This document shows, one piece after another, positions 11,410-55,046 of a DNA stretch of 64,000 nt; the stretch's first letter is position 1; every line of letters starts with the position of its first letter. Origin of the DNA: Methanobacteriota archaeon (GTDB taxonomy: Archaea > Thermoplasmatota > Thermoplasmata > SG8-5 > JAGLSY01); contig JAEHCO010000001.1 in assembly GCA_020697715.1 (NCBI GenBank), positions 320,001 through 384,000 of the forward strand. Reading direction: 5' to 3'. The translations under genes and the position numbers were made by a program. The notes below the pieces were generated by a model that worked only from the letters and a program-made list of their open reading frames with translations, was not told the DNA's origin and searched no databases.

Positions 11410-12546
11410 TCACCTGATAAGATCCCCGTCTTTCATTATGATCTCCGAGCTTCCATCTGGGTAATGCAATTCGATGGTGGGTTTTAGGATCAATCCATCC
11501 AGATGTATCAGAGCCTTCGCATCATTGTCATAGTTCGCTCCTATCGCGATGTGGCAAGTGGAATACACTTTCTCATCTTCCAGCATATTGCCAATAATAT
11601 TGGCATTGTGATTGAGTCCTATGCCCAACTCTCCAAGGTTCCGGGCATTTTTAATATACTCGTCAGCCTGCTCCTGGCCGATCTCTCCATCTTTCAACAT
11701 CTCCCTGGCATTGTCCTCGCCAGAGCGTAGGGAGGCCTCCAGAAGCCTGGCTTCCTCGCCCCCTTCGAGTTCGATCACCATATTGTCCTTGACAGTGGCC
11801 AGTATCGGCTCCTCGATGATGATCTCCCCATCCGTGGCAGATATTGAGCCATCAAAAGCGATCGTTCCATGAGAACTGCCCAAAGCCGGAGATATATACA
11901 CCTCTCCGGCCGGTAGATTCCCGCCCTGTCCAGGCTTTCTGAAATCCCCATCGTCCGATTCGCCCAGCCTTCCTTCCAAGCCGAGCATGACATCGGTTCC
12001 TATCGCGGTGGTGATCCTGGCACTTCCAGCTCTATCCAGCTTCTCCTTCAGATACGCACATTCGTCCCTCAGTTTTGCATAATCTATCGGAACCGTCCTG
12101 GAAAACATGTCCAGTGTCGTGCTTGGGGACCAAAATGCTCGCAATTTCTTATCTTTCAGATGAAGGTCGAACACGTGCTCGTAATCCTCGCCATCCAAGC
12201 CTTTGTATGGCTTGGATATGCCCCCTCTGTCCTTGCCCAGCTTTTCCGCGCTCAGGGATATCGCGATGTCAGGTATGGTAGCTAGTGCCCCCACAACCCC
12301 TTCTTCGGCATAATCCAACTGGGTCTTGTAAGGCTGGACCATTATCAGGGGTTTCCCACCTGCGGAAATTGCAGCATCATAAATGGCCAGGGCGATCGTG
12401 TAAACCCCCTTTTCAGGATTGGTTATGATGTGCAAGGTCTCTCCGGGCTTGACGGCCAGTACCTCATTCACAGCCACCTCCGCTGCCTTTTTGATATCAT
12501 TCATATCTTCAACAAAATCTGAGAACTTTGAATTTTCATCAACCAT
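11410..12546 (-). CDS. aminopeptidase, M29 (thermophilic metalloprotease) family
   Basis: GNLPAGEV, GELGIG, LEDEK, HIAIG, HLD motifs. Start at MVDENSK after GGAGAGG. Confidence 0.88.
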   Translation of the reverse strand: MVDENSKFSDFVEDMNDIKKAAEVAVNEVLAVKPGETLHIITNPEKGVYTIALAIYDAAISAGGKPLIMVQPYKTQLDYAEEGVVGALATIPDIAISLSAEKLGKDRGGISKPYKGLDGEDYEHVFDLHLKDKKLRAFWSPSTTLDMFSRTVPIDYAKLRDECAYLKEKLDRAGSARITTAIGTDVMLGLEGRLGESDDGDFRKPGQGGNLPAGEVYISPALGSSHGTIAFDGSISATDGEIIIEEPILATVKDNMVIELEGGEEARLLEASLRSGEDNAREMLKDGEIGQEQADEYIKNARNLGELGIGLNHNANIIGNMLEDEKVYSTCHIAIGANYDNDAKALIHLDGLILKPTIELHYPDGSSEIIMKDGDLIR

Positions 12547-12553
12547 CTTGAAC

Positions 12554-12606
12554 CTCTCCATTTCATTACGAGCTTATGAATGCAATCGCTTTGCTCTCGC
12601 ATTCAT
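12554..12606 (-). repeat. dispersed structured element, copy 1 (hairpin plus SD upstream of the aminopeptidase)
   Basis: Near-identical to 44191..44244; stem atgaatgc/gcattcat. Confidence 0.85.
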
Positions 12607-12671
12607 GATTCCTCCATTATCATTACGGAATCTGAAAGGATTCTCATTGATATAAAACTGCTGGCCATGGC

Positions 12672-13305: not shown

Positions 13306-14259
13306 TCACAGCATCTCGGTGATGTAAGGGGACACGAAAAGTCCAATGGTCAGGAGTATGCCGAACTTCATCTGCATCTGGGCCGTGACGCCATCAAGCA
13401 TCATGAACTTCTGCATATCGTCCTCCTTCTTGAACTTCGCAAGTTTATAGGCTGTTGGGAAGGCCAGGAAAACTATTAGGGCCAACATAGGTGCTGGAGC
13501 CATGAGGTCCAGACCCGGTATGAGACCGAGCACAACATACGAGCAAACAAGAAGGAATGGTACCAGCATGAGAGCTTTGTAGTATTTGGCAGATCCTCCA
13601 TGACCGAGCTTGGAGGCCACGGTCACGCAACCCTTCTCGGTATCTGTTTCGATATCATGCCAGTTATTCGAATGAAGTATTCCAACAGTGTAAAATACCA
13701 GTGGTATGCTCCATAATATAGGCAATATGCTGAAGGTCTGTGTTTGAACCCAAAATGTCCCGAACACAGGAAGCATACCATAGAGGAAAAAGAAGCTCAT
13801 GTCCCCCAGTCCGATATATTTCAGGGAGAAACCTGGTGTCGTGTACAGAAGGGTAAGTGCGATGCCTATTAGGCATATGAATAGGATCATCCAGCCTATG
13901 ACAAATACTAGGTAAATACCAATGGCAAAACCTACGGTCAAAAATACCATGGCAGCTCTTTTCACCTGTTCAGGCGTGAGCCAGCCACGAACAACAGCCC
14001 CACTTACAGGCAGTACCATGGTGTCAACCCCATTCTTGAAGTCATATACATCATTGAGCAGGTTGGCGGCAGTGTGCACGCACACCACACCGGCCAGGGT
14101 CATTATGAAATGTAGCCAGTTGATGTCAAAACCAGCATAATGAGTGAGAGCCAGCCCCAATACCACCGCAGACACTGAAGCCGTGTAGGCAAAGGGTCTA
14201 ACTGCTGTTATCCATATCTTCATTTTACTTGATGGTATCTCGTTCTCTGATCCTGACAT
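13306..14259 (-). CDS. menA: UbiA-family prenyltransferase, MenA-like (DHNA polyprenyltransferase)
   Basis: W...RP N-terminus, NLLNDVYDFKNGVD, LKYIGLGD, NNWHDIETD. Confidence 0.75.
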   Translation of the reverse strand: MSGSENEIPSSKMKIWITAVRPFAYTASVSAVVLGLALTHYAGFDINWLHFIMTLAGVVCVHTAANLLNDVYDFKNGVDTMVLPVSGAVVRGWLTPEQVKRAAMVFLTVGFAIGIYLVFVIGWMILFICLIGIALTLLYTTPGFSLKYIGLGDMSFFFLYGMLPVFGTFWVQTQTFSILPILWSIPLVFYTVGILHSNNWHDIETDTEKGCVTVASKLGHGGSAKYYKALMLVPFLLVCSYVVLGLIPGLDLMAPAPMLALIVFLAFPTAYKLAKFKKEDDMQKFMMLDGVTAQMQMKFGILLTIGLFVSPYITEML

Positions 14260-14376
14260 TCAATTCACCTCAGATACACACCCAAAATATGCTCTATGAT
14301 AAATAAGTGATTGTTAGGATAAGATTATTATTATCCGAGTTCATAACCCATGATATATATTATGTAAGGTGAGAAG

Positions 14377-16172: not shown

Positions 16173-17593
16173 CAGTCGTCACCTATTTTCTTACCGTACA
16201 GGTCACCGAAGCTGGAGTTATTTTCTTTGGACTGACTGCTATCTTTCTCATCTGCAGATCGTATTTTCTCCACTCTGGGAAACAATGTCGCATCTAGCCC
16301 TGTATGGAGGGTCATTCGTGGTCTCACGCATACCAATTCCATCTTCCGGGTCTTATCATCCATAATGACAGCCAGACCTCGTCTGAACTCCATTGTAGAG
16401 ACCAGTTTATCAAAATCCTTTGTTCCGGATGTGTATGACTGCTTCGCCATCTTCAAAGCCTCTATATCTGGTGCGGCAGTGACATTGTGGGCGATGATCA
16501 GATCAGCTTGCTTTATCGCACTCTGATGAAGTGCGGAAGGTTCCTGAGTGGCCAAGATCAATGAAAGACCAGGATGTCGTCCTAATTTGATCCAATCTAT
16601 CAAGGCATCGGTGGCGATGGTCTTGCCTTTGTTCGGGAGGAAAAGGTGGGCCTCATCTATCATCATGTAAACCAAAGGATGTTCTTTGGTGATATCCTTG
16701 GCCACTTCTTCATCTATGAGATTTGCCTCGGCCTGCATCTCCAATGTGGTGTACAATGTCCTAGCCCGCATGAGATGACTGGCTATGATGGAGACTATGA
16801 GATTACGTATATCGAAACCACCCAGGCGTCCCAGATAGCTTATGTCCAATATAGTCATACGACCGGCTTTCACAATGTCGGAAAAGGGTGTTCCTTCCTT
16901 ATCGAACACTCCAAGATCCTCGATCATCTGGATCGTTCCTTTCAGACTATCATTGGTTCCTTCACCCTCGAATATTTTCTGGTTATCTATCTCTCTGTAA
17001 ATGTCCTCATAGCCGTAGGGGTCGTTCTTGTGCTGAAGGGTTCTTATCACCTTTATCAAAAGAGTGCCAACAGGGTCAGTTATAGTAAGACCGAATAGAT
17101 CCAACCAGTCCTGAACACTTATCTCATGCAATGGAAGCTGGAGAACCTGATCATAGAGAACATCATGTCCTGACTTTTCCAATTCCGCGATAGCTAACTT
17201 GGGCATGAGGATGTGGACATAATCACCCATTCCCTTTGGTGTTAGACCATTAAAGCTCTTCAAACGGTCTACTTCGTAAGCATTGGAATTGGCAGTTTTC
17301 AGACTGTGAAAGACACTCATTGTATCGACTATCAGGACAGAGAGTCGATCTTTCTGTTCTGCTTCCATCATGCCAAATGACTCGGCCATGACGCCCAATG
17401 TGTACGATTTGCCAGTACCTCGCTTGCCCATGACGAGCATACAATGAGGAAAGGCCAGATCCAATTGGACCTCACCCATCTCTTCATACCGTCCAGCTGG
17501 GTAGCTGACTATCTTACCCAAGTAGCCGCATCCTCTGATACCGTATTTGTCTATGTCCTTGTCCGTTCTTCCAAATATGACCCTTTGTGACAT
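16172..17593 (-). CDS. HerA/VirB4-like (DUF87) P-loop ATPase
   Basis: Walker A GKRGTGKS, Walker B MMIDEAH, GRHPG, ATQEP sensor. Confidence 0.88.
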   Translation of the reverse strand: MSQRVIFGRTDKDIDKYGIRGCGYLGKIVSYPAGRYEEMGEVQLDLAFPHCMLVMGKRGTGKSYTLGVMAESFGMMEAEQKDRLSVLIVDTMSVFHSLKTANSNAYEVDRLKSFNGLTPKGMGDYVHILMPKLAIAELEKSGHDVLYDQVLQLPLHEISVQDWLDLFGLTITDPVGTLLIKVIRTLQHKNDPYGYEDIYREIDNQKIFEGEGTNDSLKGTIQMIEDLGVFDKEGTPFSDIVKAGRMTILDISYLGRLGGFDIRNLIVSIIASHLMRARTLYTTLEMQAEANLIDEEVAKDITKEHPLVYMMIDEAHLFLPNKGKTIATDALIDWIKLGRHPGLSLILATQEPSALHQSAIKQADLIIAHNVTAAPDIEALKMAKQSYTSGTKDFDKLVSTMEFRRGLAVIMDDKTRKMELVCVRPRMTLHTGLDATLFPRVEKIRSADEKDSSQSKENNSSFGDLYGKKIGDD

Positions 17594-35181: not shown

Positions 35182-35937
35182 ATGTTAGCAGTTAAGACAG
35201 ATAAATTGACAAAGAACTATGGTGATTTCAAGGCCCTGGATGAACTGGAACTCCAGGTGATCAAGGGCGAGATATATGGACTACTTGGTCCGAATGGAGC
35301 TGGTAAGACCACGGCTATCAAGGTTCTTGTTGGCTTACTGAAAAAAACCTCGGGCACAGCCCAGGTCCTTGACATCGAGATCCCAAACAAGCAGATAGCC
35401 AGTGATATTGGTTTCATGCCACAGGAGACCGCGATGTACATCGGCCTCACGGTCCATCAGAACATGGAATTTTTCGGAAAGCTCTTTGGCATGACGAAAG
35501 AACAAATAGCCATCAAGGAAGCGGAATTACTGAAATTCGTTGATCTGGAGGATTGGAAGGACGAGCTCGTGCAGAACCTCAGTGGTGGTATGAAACATCG
35601 TGTTAGTCTAGCATGTACTTTGATACACGAGCCTGATATTCTATTTCTTGATGAGCCAACAGTTGGTGTTGACCCTAAACTGAGAGCCAATTTCTGGAAG
35701 TATTTCAATAAGCTGAAGGAGAATGGAACGACCGTCATCATCACCACCCATTACATGGACGAGGCCAGGAACTGCGACAGGGTGGGTTTCATGCGCCAGG
35801 GGAAGCTCATTGCCGAAGGCATACCGAATGAGATAATGAAAGACACTGGCACGGATAATTTGGAGGACGCTTTTCTTCATTATGCGACCATCGGGGAGGC
35901 CTCCGACGGTCCCACGCCCGATGGAGGTGGGGAATAA
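35182..35937 (+). CDS. ABC-2 type exporter ATP-binding subunit
   Basis: GPNGAGKT, LSGGM, LDEPT, TTH. Confidence 0.95.
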   Translation: MLAVKTDKLTKNYGDFKALDELELQVIKGEIYGLLGPNGAGKTTAIKVLVGLLKKTSGTAQVLDIEIPNKQIASDIGFMPQETAMYIGLTVHQNMEFFGKLFGMTKEQIAIKEAELLKFVDLEDWKDELVQNLSGGMKHRVSLACTLIHEPDILFLDEPTVGVDPKLRANFWKYFNKLKENGTTVIITTHYMDEARNCDRVGFMRQGKLIAEGIPNEIMKDTGTDNLEDAFLHYATIGEASDGPTPDGGGE

Positions 35938-37070
35938 TGGATCTGGGAAGAATACTGGCCGTCAGTAAAAGAGTGTTCATCGACCTGAAGAATGACAAAC
36001 GTAGCCTTGCCTTGATAATCATAGCTCCTCTTTTCTCAATGGCAGTTTTTGGTCTAGCCTTCAGCGGAGAGGTGGAGAATATAGGTGTTATTATTGTGAA
36101 TCATGATACTGGCATGGACATTCCCATTGTAGGAGATGTTGATTTTGCAGATCAGGTGATAGATAATATAGATCATGACACGTTAGATATTCAGGAAAGC
36201 GATGATCTGGTCACGGCAATTGAAAGTCTTGAGGCGGGAGATGCCTGGGCCGTCATATATTTCTCTGAGAATTATACGGCAAACACGATGGCCAGTATAA
36301 TTCCATTCACTAATGCCAGCTCGGAGATCGAGCTGTATATTGATATGAGTAATGTGAACTTGGCAGAAGCGATAATCATAGAGGTCAATTCCGCCCTCAT
36401 GGCAACCATGGAAGAGAATGGCGGAAGCTTGCCAGTCACTGTGGAAAGGACCGAGGTATACGGTCAGAATGCGGAGTTCATGGACTTCTTCGTTCCCGGG
36501 ATAGTGAGCTTCGCTGTCTATCTATTCACCACTCTCCTCACACTCATGGCCTTCATCGGCGAGCGGGTGAGTGGCACATTATCACGAGTACTGGCCACAC
36601 CACTTAGAGAATCAGAGATCGTATCAGGTTACGCGCTGACCTTCAGCATTGTGGGAACTCTCCAATCGATATTCATGATAGTCGTGGGAATTCTGGCATT
36701 CGATGTCATGATCGAAGGAAACATACTCCTGGTCTTCATGGTCGTCGCCCTGTTGGCCATAGTGTGCCAGGCCCTGGGGATCCTCCTCTCATCATTTGCT
36801 CAAAGAGAGGCACAGGCTGCACAGTTCCTTCCATTGATCGTCATGCCAGCCTTCCTCCTTTCGGGGGTCTTTTGGCCATTGGAAGCAATACCTGCCTGGC
36901 TCAGGCCAGCCAGCTTTTTAGTCCCTCCTTCATACTCGATAACGGCCGCAAGGTCCGTCATGATAAGAGGTTGGGGACTGGACATGATATGGATGGACAT
37001 GGTGGCATTGGTGATATTCGCAATGGTCCTGTTGACACTGGCTGTTATATCTCTGAAGAAAAAGGGTTGA
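35937..37070 (+). CDS. ABC-2 type exporter permease
   Basis: ERVSGTL...TP, LSGVFWP, six TM helices with a large extracellular loop. Confidence 0.92.
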   Translation: MDLGRILAVSKRVFIDLKNDKRSLALIIIAPLFSMAVFGLAFSGEVENIGVIIVNHDTGMDIPIVGDVDFADQVIDNIDHDTLDIQESDDLVTAIESLEAGDAWAVIYFSENYTANTMASIIPFTNASSEIELYIDMSNVNLAEAIIIEVNSALMATMEENGGSLPVTVERTEVYGQNAEFMDFFVPGIVSFAVYLFTTLLTLMAFIGERVSGTLSRVLATPLRESEIVSGYALTFSIVGTLQSIFMIVVGILAFDVMIEGNILLVFMVVALLAIVCQALGILLSSFAQREAQAAQFLPLIVMPAFLLSGVFWPLEAIPAWLRPASFLVPPSYSITAARSVMIRGWGLDMIWMDMVALVIFAMVLLTLAVISLKKKG

Positions 37071-43819: not shown

Positions 43820-44185
43820 TTAGCTCATCAATTTAATGATGGCCTCAGCCGGCTCTCCATCACATTCTACCAGTGCTTCCTTCGCTTTCTCATATGAGAC
43901 ATTGGCCTGCATCGCGACCAGTTCAATGTCCTCTTCAGGGATGACCAGACCAACCGGCTCACTGGAAACCTCTCCATGGACTATCTCCGGGTCGCCAACT
44001 ATCTGAAAGGTCTTCTGCCCCTGAACTTCCATCATGGTCACCTCTGGTTTGGTGATGACGTAGCTCTTGTCCTGGGTCTTGATAATGACCTCTTCGACAT
44101 CTCTCATCTCCTCGGATTTGATCCCGAGTCTTTTCATCGCTTGCTGCATCTGGCGCGGGTTCATCCCTTTCATTCCAGGCATCAT
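43820..44185 (-). CDS. nac: nascent polypeptide-associated complex protein
   Basis: MNPRQM...VEEVII...FQIVG and C-terminal UBA domain (EDIELV...AEAII). Confidence 0.95.
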   Translation of the reverse strand: MMPGMKGMNPRQMQQAMKRLGIKSEEMRDVEEVIIKTQDKSYVITKPEVTMMEVQGQKTFQIVGDPEIVHGEVSSEPVGLVIPEEDIELVAMQANVSYEKAKEALVECDGEPAEAIIKLMS

Positions 44186-44190
44186 CTAAT

Positions 44191-44244
44191 CTCTCCATTG
44201 ACATTACGAGCTTTTGAAAGCAATCGCTCTGCTCTCGCTTTCAA
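44191..44244 (-). repeat. dispersed structured element, copy 2 (hairpin plus SD upstream of nac)
   Basis: Near-identical to 12554..12606; stem ttgaaagc/gctttcaa. Confidence 0.85.
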
Positions 44245-44396
44245 TATCACATCCCATAATAGTGGATTTTGATATTAATAGTTAATGAGAACATTTTCTC
44301 AAAGATATCATCATATCTCCATCAATTACCCTACATCTACGTTACATGCACATATGCTCCTTTATATCTCGAAGAAAAAATCAGGAGGCCGATAAT

Positions 44397-53258: not shown

Positions 53259-54908
53259 TTAGAAGTCCATTCCGCCCATGCCGCCCATTCCTGGAGGCAT
53301 GCCGCCTGCTCCACCTGGTGGGCCGCCAGCCATCTTCTTGCCAGCTATGACGTCATCTATCCTGAGGATCATATTCGCCACTTCGGTAGCTGATTCGATA
53401 GCCTGGGTCTTGACCCTGAGGGGCTCGATGATATTGAGCTTCTTCATGTCAACGACCTTTCCAGTGTCCACATTGATGCCAGCTGTCTTGACCTTCTTAC
53501 CCTCGTGCTCGCTTCTTAGTTTGATGAGGATGTCGATAGAATCCAGACCTGCGTTCTCTGCCAATGTCCATGGGATGATCTCGGTTGCCTTTGCGAAAGC
53601 CTCTATGGCCAGCTGTTCCCTTCCACCGATCTTGGTGCCGAACTTTGTCAAGCCCATTGATAATTCAATTTCAGCTGATCCGCCGCCTGGTATGACCATT
53701 CCGTCCTCGACTGCGACTGCCACTACTTTCAAAGCATCGTGCAGAGCCCTGTCACTCTCATCTATGACGTGTTCTGTCGCGCCCCTGATGAGCATGGAAA
53801 CGGATTTCGCATCCTTGCAACCAGTGACGAATGTCATGTCACTGTCAGCGACCTTCCTCTCTTCCACCATTCCGGCAGTTCCGAGGTCGGACTTCTTGAT
53901 GTCCTCGAGGTTGGTGACAACGTGACCACCAGTCGCCATAGAGAGCTTCTCCATGTCGGACTTCTTGATCCTGCGTATGGTGAAGATATTCTCCTTGGCC
54001 AAGTAGTGCTGGACCAGATCGTCCACGCCCTTCTGGCAGAAGACGACATTCGCGCCTGATTTCTTGATGAGGTCCACTTTCTTCTTCAGTGTCTTCTCTT
54101 CCTCATCCAGGAAAGCCTGCAATTGTGTCGGGTCTGTGATCTGGATCTTTGCATCCACTTCGGTCTTCTTGATCTCGAGAGCGGAATCGATGAGTGCGAT
54201 CTTCGCGTTCTTAACAGAGCTTGGCATCCTTGGGTGAACCTTTTCCTTGTCCAGTATGATACCCTCGATGAGCTCTGAATCACTGACATTTCCACCAGTC
54301 TTCTTCTCGATCTTGATATTGTCGATGTCAACAACGTACTTCGATCCTTTCTTCTCCGCGACTGCCTTCACTGCCTTGACTGTGATGTCCGCGAGGTAGC
54401 TCTTCTCGGTTCCAATGCTCTTTCCGGTCATCGCGGTCATGGCCACACTCTTCAGGGCCTTCCCATCTGTTGGGCTGACCTTCACACCAAGCTTGTTCAG
54501 GATACCGATGGCCTCGATGGAAGCCAGTCTGTATCCGTTCGCTATGACAGTAGGGTGCACATTGTGTTCGATAAGATCTTCAGCTTTCTTCAGTAATTCG
54601 CCAGCCAGTACGACTGCGGATGTTGTTCCATCCCCACACTCATTATCCTGGGTCTTGGCAACCTCGACGACCATCTTGGCCGCAGGGTGTTCGATGTCGA
54701 TCTCCTTCAGGATGGTGGCCCCGTCATTCGTGATGACGACGTCTCCCATTCCATCGACCAGCATCTTGTCCATTCCTTTTGGACCCAAGGTCGAGCGCAC
54801 TGCCTCAGCCACAGCTTTTGCTGCAGCTATATTGTTGAGCTGGGCACCTCTGCCTTTCATGTCCTTCGCTCCTTCTCTTAATACGATAATTGGTTGTTGT
54901 CCTTGCAT
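53259..54908 (-). CDS. ths: thermosome (group II chaperonin) subunit
   Basis: [25 protein letters not shown]-terminal GGM repeats. Confidence 0.97.
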
Positions 54909-55046
54909 GTTTTCATCTCCTTAATATATAAATTCGGACTCCCCCAAGAGTTTGAACTTCTATAAAAGCTTTATTGCTAAGTCAACTACTATTTGGAATG
55001 CAAAATTATATGACTTCCATCCCATTCCTATTGATGAGGCAGTATC

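Follow-up and report, generated by a model that had tools for sequence, protein, structure and literature searches.

In a few bacteria, small dispersed repeats are known to supply genes with expression signals. The REP2 repeats of Neisseria and the IR sequences of Borrelia plasmids are described as dispersed sequences located directly upstream of genes, with two predicted stem-loops, which bring a ribosome-binding site (RBS); the bacterial REP2 also carries a promoter and an ATG and precedes a co-regulated gene set (PMC3184786). According to the same available text, REPs are extragenic stem-loops, some of them with a 5' GTAG, RAYT genes are flanked by REPs, and Correia MITEs are small repeats co-transcribed with neighbouring genes that alter expression signals (PMC3184786). 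In the RNA thermometers ROSE and fourU, as far as the available descriptions go, a short helix pairs the Shine-Dalgarno sequence (SD) with an upstream anti-SD.

REPs are mostly found 3' of genes and in both orientations, and MITEs of the Correia/ERIC type have terminal inverted repeats (TIRs) and target-site duplications (TSDs) and are inserted in either orientation. The palindrome-associated elements derived from IS200/IS605 are strand-specific and contain hairpins, without TIRs or TSDs. We know of no co-transcribed MITE that targets the spacer between the SD and the start codon.

The archaeal cassette investigated here resembles REP2 and the Borrelia IR sequences, being a repeat directly 5' of ORFs that supplies an RBS and contains two stem-loops, a functional likeness that results from comparing descriptions alone, on the side of REP2 and IR those of the available text. 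Unlike REP2 as characterised there, it is archaeal, occupies the space from the native SD to the ATG, is internal to operons in many of its copies, gives upstream genes their stop codons and precedes unrelated genes. With ROSE and fourU it shares an SD held in a short helix with an upstream anti-SD, whereas these thermometers, in the descriptions available, are single-locus regulators of heat shock or virulence and not a mobile multi-copy family. The likeness to REP/REPIN and RAYT systems consists of a short multi-copy palindromic unit with covarying stems and of a single-copy Y1 gene in the genome, but each of the 33 copies precedes a start codon on the sense strand, GTAG was not seen by eye and the Y1 gene is not flanked by the hairpin. 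High copy number and presence/absence polymorphism are shared with MITEs, while no TIRs, no consistent TSD and no parent insertion sequence (IS) were found for the cassette. Compared with a riboswitch or the leader of a regulon, its gene set is heterogeneous and it matches no curated RNA family.

In the literature searched, we found no archaeal small dispersed repeat that brings expression signals to genes, and no element placed precisely between SD and start codon that also closes the upstream cistron. The available part of a comparative-genomics paper on the order makes no mention of such an element (PMC4153887).

The copies in the window and their family in the genome

The window, which is the whole stretch of 64,000 nt that was analysed, contains only two matches to the covariance model of the cassette. 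Both have the minus strand as mRNA sense, and they precede genes that Pfam assigns to the family M29 peptidases and to the NAC alpha subunit. The two leaders align from about 10 nt 5' of the hairpin to the start codon. Sequences and coordinates of both copies, already given in the first-pass annotation of this DNA, were re-read from the window and are correct; the cassette of about 54 nt described there is real, although its length is about 60 nt when measured from where the hairpin begins up to the start codon.

In copy 1, hairpin 1 (12576..12606, minus strand) is built of a 10-bp stem, with G·U and A-U among its pairs, then a tandem G·A/A·G and a 2-bp helix capped by the triloop AAA. Its fold has -13.5 kcal/mol (z = -4.35 against dinucleotide shuffles, with 0/200 shuffles as good) and the covariance model scores 66.1 bits on the minus strand versus 13.5 bits on the plus strand. 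It is followed by the anti-SD AAGCTC (12570..12575, minus strand); covariation of helix 2 and a permutation test indicate that this anti-SD pairs with the 3' portion of the SD brought by the cassette, GGAGAGGTT (12551..12559, minus strand). The end of the GGAGAG is 7 nt 5' of the ATG. The true start codon of the M29 peptidase (MVDENSK...) is at 12544..12546 on the minus strand, and cassette-free relatives begin at MVDE. The ORF listing starts at 12561 because the ATGGAG of the cassette is in frame with this true start. The same is often observed elsewhere in the genome, where false N-terminal extensions (MERFKM, MEESNM, MERLAM etc.) affect 10/26 first-ORF calls, and these false 'ME..' extensions are an annotation pitfall.

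Upstream of copy 1, an older unit (12607..12649, minus strand) was recognised by comparison with the sister species, in which it is intact at the same site. It contains the remnant of a perfect-palindrome hairpin (12633-12649, minus strand) and an anti-SD:SD module, GATTCC...GGAGGAATC (12607-12632, minus strand), that now acts as the upstream SD box of copy 1. The intact counterpart in the congener G003 suggests that this unit has decayed here.

Copy 2 has the same architecture with an AGA triloop (hairpin 1 at 44214..44244, minus strand; -13.2 kcal/mol, z = -3.93 against dinucleotide shuffles, 0/200 shuffles as good; 61 bits on the minus strand versus 8.2 bits on the plus strand). Its anti-SD AAGCTC is at 44208..44213 and its own SD, GGAGAGATT, at 44188..44196, both on the minus strand, the end of the GGAGAG being 5 nt 5' of the NAC ATG (44183..44185, minus strand; ORF 43820-44185). 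On the other side of the hairpin, the native SD-like box of NAC, GGGATGTGATA (44245..44255, minus strand), is found unchanged in cassette-free relatives, where it lies 2 nt before the ATG.

Most of what had been read from these two copies holds. The spacings of 7 nt (M29 peptidase) and 5 nt (NAC) are confirmed, the stem differences are compensatory (the outer stems differ at two pairs, A-U to U-A and U-A to A-U), and the tandem G·A capped by GC-NNA-GC corresponds to a 2-bp helix with an NNA triloop. The number of copies, on the other hand, was understated, since the two are part of 33 strong matches in the 2.1-Mb genome by covariance-model scan. The model, built from 28 copies (alignment A2), gives 40 matches at E up to 1, with E < 1e-3 in 33 of them. 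When up to 3 mismatches are allowed, a 19-nt core pattern has 22 hits in the 2.12-Mb genome versus one for the reversed control. The family extends somewhat beyond these 33, since more divergent hairpins, some with Watson-Crick pairs replacing the G·A, also precede the downstream module. Each unit has about 60 nt, consisting of the 31-nt hairpin and then the anti-SD:SD helix, which ends 5-9 nt before the start codon, and units can be stacked in tandem or accompanied by extra hairpins in arrays of up to ~190 nt. A match to a known Rfam family would remove the novelty, as had been pointed out; a search of Rfam returned no match at gathering score, and none of relevance when E was raised to 1.

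All 33 copies are in sense orientation upstream of an SD and a start codon, which is the kind of orientation and position bias, just 5' of a gene start, that the first-pass annotation suggested looking for. An ORF of at least 50 aa after SD and start was found automatically in 32/33, and the 33rd copy precedes a 44-aa ORF. The distance between hairpin and start codon is 27-33 nt in 24/33 copies; the other 9 have extra hairpins and distances of 42-137 nt. The host genes encode, among others, the ribosomal proteins L39e, S8e, L10e and S11, ATP synthase, glutamine synthetase, transketolase, TldD/PmbA, oxidoreductases, FtsJ, a hemerythrin, a multihaem cytochrome, a TPR protein and peptidases. Already described as unrelated for the first two copies, they are functionally heterogeneous across all copies by Pfam, and a regulon is unlikely because they have no common function.

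The 44-aa ORF (MYRCGKCKNQI...), a zinc-ribbon protein encoded 29 nt after the copy at 167025-167075 of contig C11 in G000, looks by eye like a small RNA polymerase subunit and is easily missed by ORF-length filters.

Conserved structure and stop codons in the hairpin arm

The hairpin has 31 nt, with a 10-bp stem, tandem G·A, 2 bp and an NNA triloop. Among 28 copies, 96.4% of the cells of hairpin 1 are in a standard pair and 11/12 pairs have changed on both sides; when the 3' partners are slid by 1-3 columns as a control, merely 29-42% of the cells are paired. The second helix, between anti-SD and SD, has 90% of cells paired and 5/6 pairs changed on both sides in 20 short-form copies (alignment A3), in agreement with the small second arm partly occluding the SD that had been noticed in the window. 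None of 500 shuffles reaches the values observed for hairpin 1 or for the whole structure including the anti-SD:SD helix; shuffle and permutation statistics are inflated here, as the copies are related to one another, and the covariation pattern is clear despite this. RNAalifold independently predicts hairpin 1 and three core pairs of the anti-SD:SD helix. The 11/12 hairpin pairs changed on both sides and the 0/500 matching shuffles agree with the selection on the structure proposed from two copies.

Anti-SDs pair with their own SD at -5.86 kcal/mol versus -4.01 kcal/mol with the SDs of other copies, and 0/5000 permutations are as good (a statistic subject to the same inflation). This preference for the SD of the same copy marks the SD as part of the cassette. 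Stems contain 35 G·T and 1 A·C wobble pairs, an excess from which the sense strand is identified as the folding strand, in the form of RNA or of top-strand DNA. All 28 copies have the tandem G·A and an A as the last base of the loop.

A chance likeness of two leaders, or a sequence convergence driven by the shared SD, could be proposed considering that all SD regions look alike, with nothing further in its favour. We regard it as negligible and rejected it in view of the 33 strong copies, the single hit of the reversed control, the covariation reached by none of the 500 shuffles and the stability of the hairpins against shuffles.

Other candidates were rejected as well. K-turns are defined by tandem G·A pairs adjoining a 3-nt bulge, and in our alignments paired positions directly adjoin the tandem G·A on either strand and there is no 3-nt bulge, which excludes a kink-turn or K-loop. 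A leader peptide or uORF starting at the hairpin's NTG is not conserved, the first codon being TTG, ATG, CTG or TAG with varying stop positions. A riboswitch-like switch or a guide acting by pairing of the anti-SD with the purine box upstream of the cassette was also discarded, given that own and permuted pairings have the same energy (-3.70 and -3.70 kcal/mol) and 2469/5000 permutations are at least as good; this left flank shows no copy-specific complementarity to the anti-SD, and guide-like target recognition is unsupported.

The 5' arm of the hairpin doubles as the stop codon of upstream cistrons, a point absent from the first-pass annotation. In this genome, a long open frame reads into the hairpin in 17/33 copies, and 16 of these frames stop within its first 8 nt (TGA at +4 in ten, TGA at +8 in three, TAG at +3 in two and TAA at +5 in one). 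The 17th is the frame of copy 1, which does not belong to the upstream gene, as this ends 65 nt earlier. In G003, 13/20 loci have a read-in frame and 13/13 stop within 8 nt; the arm therefore gives the stop codon of the upstream cistron in 29/29 usable cases (16 here and 13 in G003). Its variants (TAG, TAA, AATGAG) agree with the frame requiring them. The four copies with an AATGAG arm in this genome are all in frame-2 contexts, where no other copies are found, and frame-0 copies have TAG instead of TTG, with the 3' arm changed to preserve the pair. Because the arm variants match the required frame, the cassette is a complete replacement junction made of stop codon, hairpin and SD.

Several of these features would also be expected from a non-mobile family of host cis-regulatory leader RNAs kept by selection, either because the hairpin binds a shared protein or because the anti-SD:SD helix is a thermosensor. 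Covariation is strong in both helices, the folding strand is that of the mRNA, the tandem G·A and the last loop base do not vary, the SD is partly sequestered and the hairpin remains intact even where its arm has changed into a stop codon. The absence of a common function among the genes is difficult to reconcile with such a family, and so are the lack of an Rfam match even at E up to 1 and the variant hairpins that have Watson-Crick pairs instead of G·A in front of an unchanged downstream module. The comparison of orthologous sites bears on it further.

Filled and empty sites among relatives

All genomes compared are metagenome-assembled genomes (MAGs). At E up to 0.01, three congeners have 59, 31 and 42 matches to the covariance model, and the sister genus has 20. 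In another family, three genomes have 1-5 matches each, and in a third family one genome has a single weak match; the remaining 32/41 relatives have none with the same model and threshold. The same distribution resulted from an order-wide search in 22 genomes. In the species genomes searched, an exact 23-nt pattern was found in 29 stretches, which come from no more than 4 MAGs, all belonging to this lineage; viral contigs gave 0 matches. The cassette thus ranges over one family of uncultured archaea, with some 35-60 insertions in each genome, and occurs in a few copies in a single further genus. In the fragmented relatives, some contigs end inside the element.

Empty orthologous loci, whose comparison had been proposed earlier, exist even between congeneric species. 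The NAC leader is filled here (59 nt) and in G003 (110 nt, in a three-hairpin form), where the outer stem is identical and the apical helix shows a double compensatory swap, a difference that would again suit a host leader RNA. It is empty in the congeners G001 and G002, in G004 from the sister genus and in G020 from another family, which have a TATA-like box (recognised by eye), the native SD, 2 nt and the ATG. The NAC cassette is therefore a gain, since the outgroups are empty. For the M29 leader, this genome and G003 have a filled site, and G001 and G002 an empty one.

We screened the loci of 20 copies from relatives against this genome, and 16 gave a tblastn hit; of the corresponding sites here, 6 are clearly empty, 6 are filled and 4 are ambiguous. 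Among 20 further copies of G003, 14 are empty here, with downstream proteins 93-99% identical (one of the 14 hits is low-complexity, with 52% identity and the flanking DNA still aligned); of the other 6, 3 are filled, 1 is scar-like and 2 are ambiguous. Module make-up differs between orthologous filled sites, even though the neighbouring genes are 97-99% identical.

Two empty sites are inside the window. At the junction of an ABC-transporter gene (35923-35939, plus strand; GGAGGTGGGGAATA-ATG), the site is empty here and in G004, being filled only in G003 (L106), with an array of ~150 nt and several hairpins. Upstream of a chaperonin-like (thermosome-like) gene (MQGQQPI...; 54897-54922, minus strand), it is empty here and in G002, G004, G019 and G020, and occupied in G001 and G003 by cassettes that share their outer stem, a pattern that would need loss or exchange/recombination between species. 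Three empty alleles (L095, L107 and L108) have (C/T)TGAATG and further identity to the 5' arm; the gene of L108 natively starts with ATGAGCGA in an outgroup. These scar-like alleles could be excision scars or targets favoured by microhomology, and some empty alleles may be losses rather than ancestral states.

One of these alleles is in the window, upstream of a UbiA-family gene (13306-14259) whose start is preceded by GAGGTGAATTGA (14260-14271, minus strand). Here SD-TTGAATG is like the first 8 nt of the 5' arm. The site has a full cassette in G003 (L107) and may represent an excision scar or a microhomology-favoured target. In another case, on contig C29 of G000, upstream of the L102 orthologue, we observed two tandem units of ~38 nt of a different type, each ending in AAAATGGAGAGGATGCCTG. 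In G003, L102 carries the standard hairpin, and the tandem units may be another type of SD-bearing repeat.

The purine box upstream of the cassette is identical in filled and empty alleles. Being unchanged in cassette-free alleles, it is the native SD of the gene, which had also escaped the first-pass annotation, and the possibility of its being a part of the element was rejected on the same grounds. The 16S 3' end of this genome is ...GGATCACCTCCT, which the native SD matches. With this SD as its left flank, the insert replaces 0-4 nt of the spacer directly before the ATG; it starts with (N)TGAATG[C/A]G, and its last part is its own SD followed by 5-9 nt. At every left flank there is an SD-like box, in many cases with GAT(T) at its end, and no fixed word adjoins the insert. 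No TSD of fixed length is consistent among 14 filled/empty pairs. The cleanly anchored pairs have overlaps of -1, 0, -2, -1, -1 and -4, and positive values (+7 and +11) arise only from microhomology. TIRs are absent from the ends of the insert, its palindromes being internal hairpins.

Taken as host leader RNAs, the cassettes would have to vary in presence/absence between species whose flanking proteins are 93-99% identical, form tandem arrays, exchange modules between orthologous sites and be confined to one family with few copies elsewhere, and we consider this origin very unlikely. We suggest instead that the cassette is quite probably a lineage-specific, non-autonomous and strand-specific MITE/REP-like insertion cassette that lands between the native SD and the start codon. 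Of the two possibilities raised initially, the REP/MITE-like element carrying its own RBS is favoured by the many copies, filled and empty sites, arrays, contig breaks inside the element and unrelated hosts, with the reservation that the defining features of MITEs and REP/RAYT systems are absent. For the other, a cis-regulatory 5'-UTR RNA, a secondary, exapted role is possible in light of the covariation, the sense-strand fold and the SD in a helix, whereas a conserved regulon is disfavoured by the gene set and the rapid gain and loss.

Possible modes of spread and proposed consequences for translation initiation

The genome has a single intact Y1 (IS200-type) transposase gene, on contig C1 of G000 (16359-16709; L080), adjoining tRNA-Phe and msrA/msrB, and the transposase is detected with E of ~1e-29 here and in two congeners. 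The cassette could then be a REP- or PATE-like derivative of IS200/IS605, moved as single-stranded DNA by this Y1 (HUH) enzyme in trans and inserted 3' of an SD-like target. Like IS200/IS605-derived elements, it is strand-specific and rich in hairpins, with neither TIRs nor TSDs. Its SD-like sequences at the left flank and at the right end are reminiscent of the paired cleavage sites of that family, and an intact single Y1_Tnp gene exists here and in two congeners. Differences are that no fixed tetra- or pentanucleotide target was found adjoining the insert, that there is no correlation with the transposase and no TnpB match above the cut-off, and that its anti-SD is not complementary to the left flank in a copy-specific manner. 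The flanks of the Y1 gene contain no cassette-like hairpin, and contig C1 has no match to the covariance model. The gene was not found in two cassette-bearing genomes (74% and 83% complete), and the transposase is present in 22/41 relatives, including cassette-free families. Linkage to an HUH/TnpA (RAYT) gene, a lead given by the earlier reading, was consequently not borne out, the Y1 gene being neither flanked by the hairpin nor correlated with the cassette, and we see derivation from IS200/IS605 as improbable. A parent IS with matching ends was searched for as well; no longer element with these hairpins was found, all 33 copies being directly 5' of host genes. By their defining tests, the cassette does not qualify as a MITE, a REP/RAYT element or an IS200/IS605 derivative.

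Our leading guess, which we would put near an even chance, is that the cassette spreads between leaders by hairpin- or microhomology-driven template switching or by ectopic gene conversion. We favour it because orthologous sites show shuffled modules although the genes next to them are nearly identical, microhomology occurs at some junctions, a few bases of the spacer are replaced and there is no signature of transposition. Spread by a dedicated single-strand transposase, whether the Y1 enzyme or another kind, is unlikely but deserves consideration, and some other mode of spread we simply hold to be unlikely.

Each unit of the cassette carries, in this order, a 5' arm with stop codons, the 31-nt hairpin, the anti-SD and a new SD 5-9 nt before the old ATG. 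The stops of the arm end an upstream cistron whose frame would else continue into the insert. The native SD would be pushed ~60 nt upstream and retired. Translation would then start at the cassette's SD after its release from the weak 6-bp helix, possibly stacked on hairpin 1. Where the cassette is internal to an operon, hairpin 1 would be melted by ribosomes that terminate in the 5' arm, and this melting may loosen the anti-SD:SD helix and tie initiation at the downstream gene to translation of the upstream one. For a monocistronic gene, the hairpin would be at or near the 5' end of the transcript. These effects at the RNA level are inferred from the sequence comparisons. The compensatory changes and frame-matched stops are signs of selection at the level of the host and agree with a useful RNA no less well than with an element that is purely selfish.

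A tentative reading, to which we give somewhat less than an even chance, is that of a so far undescribed kind of mobile element targeting the translation-initiation region. It would insert in one orientation in the spacer between SD and start codon, persist as a replacement junction (with stops, an insulating hairpin and a gated SD) and depend on a mechanism directed to SD and ATG that is perhaps unrelated to known transposases. If confirmed, the initiation regions of core genes (ribosomal proteins, ATP synthase, NAC and the chaperonin-like gene) would be open to repeated rewiring within one genus. Sister species would offer a natural experiment, in which native and cassette-borne SDs can be compared on identical genes, and there is a real chance that the mechanism of insertion targeting is new.
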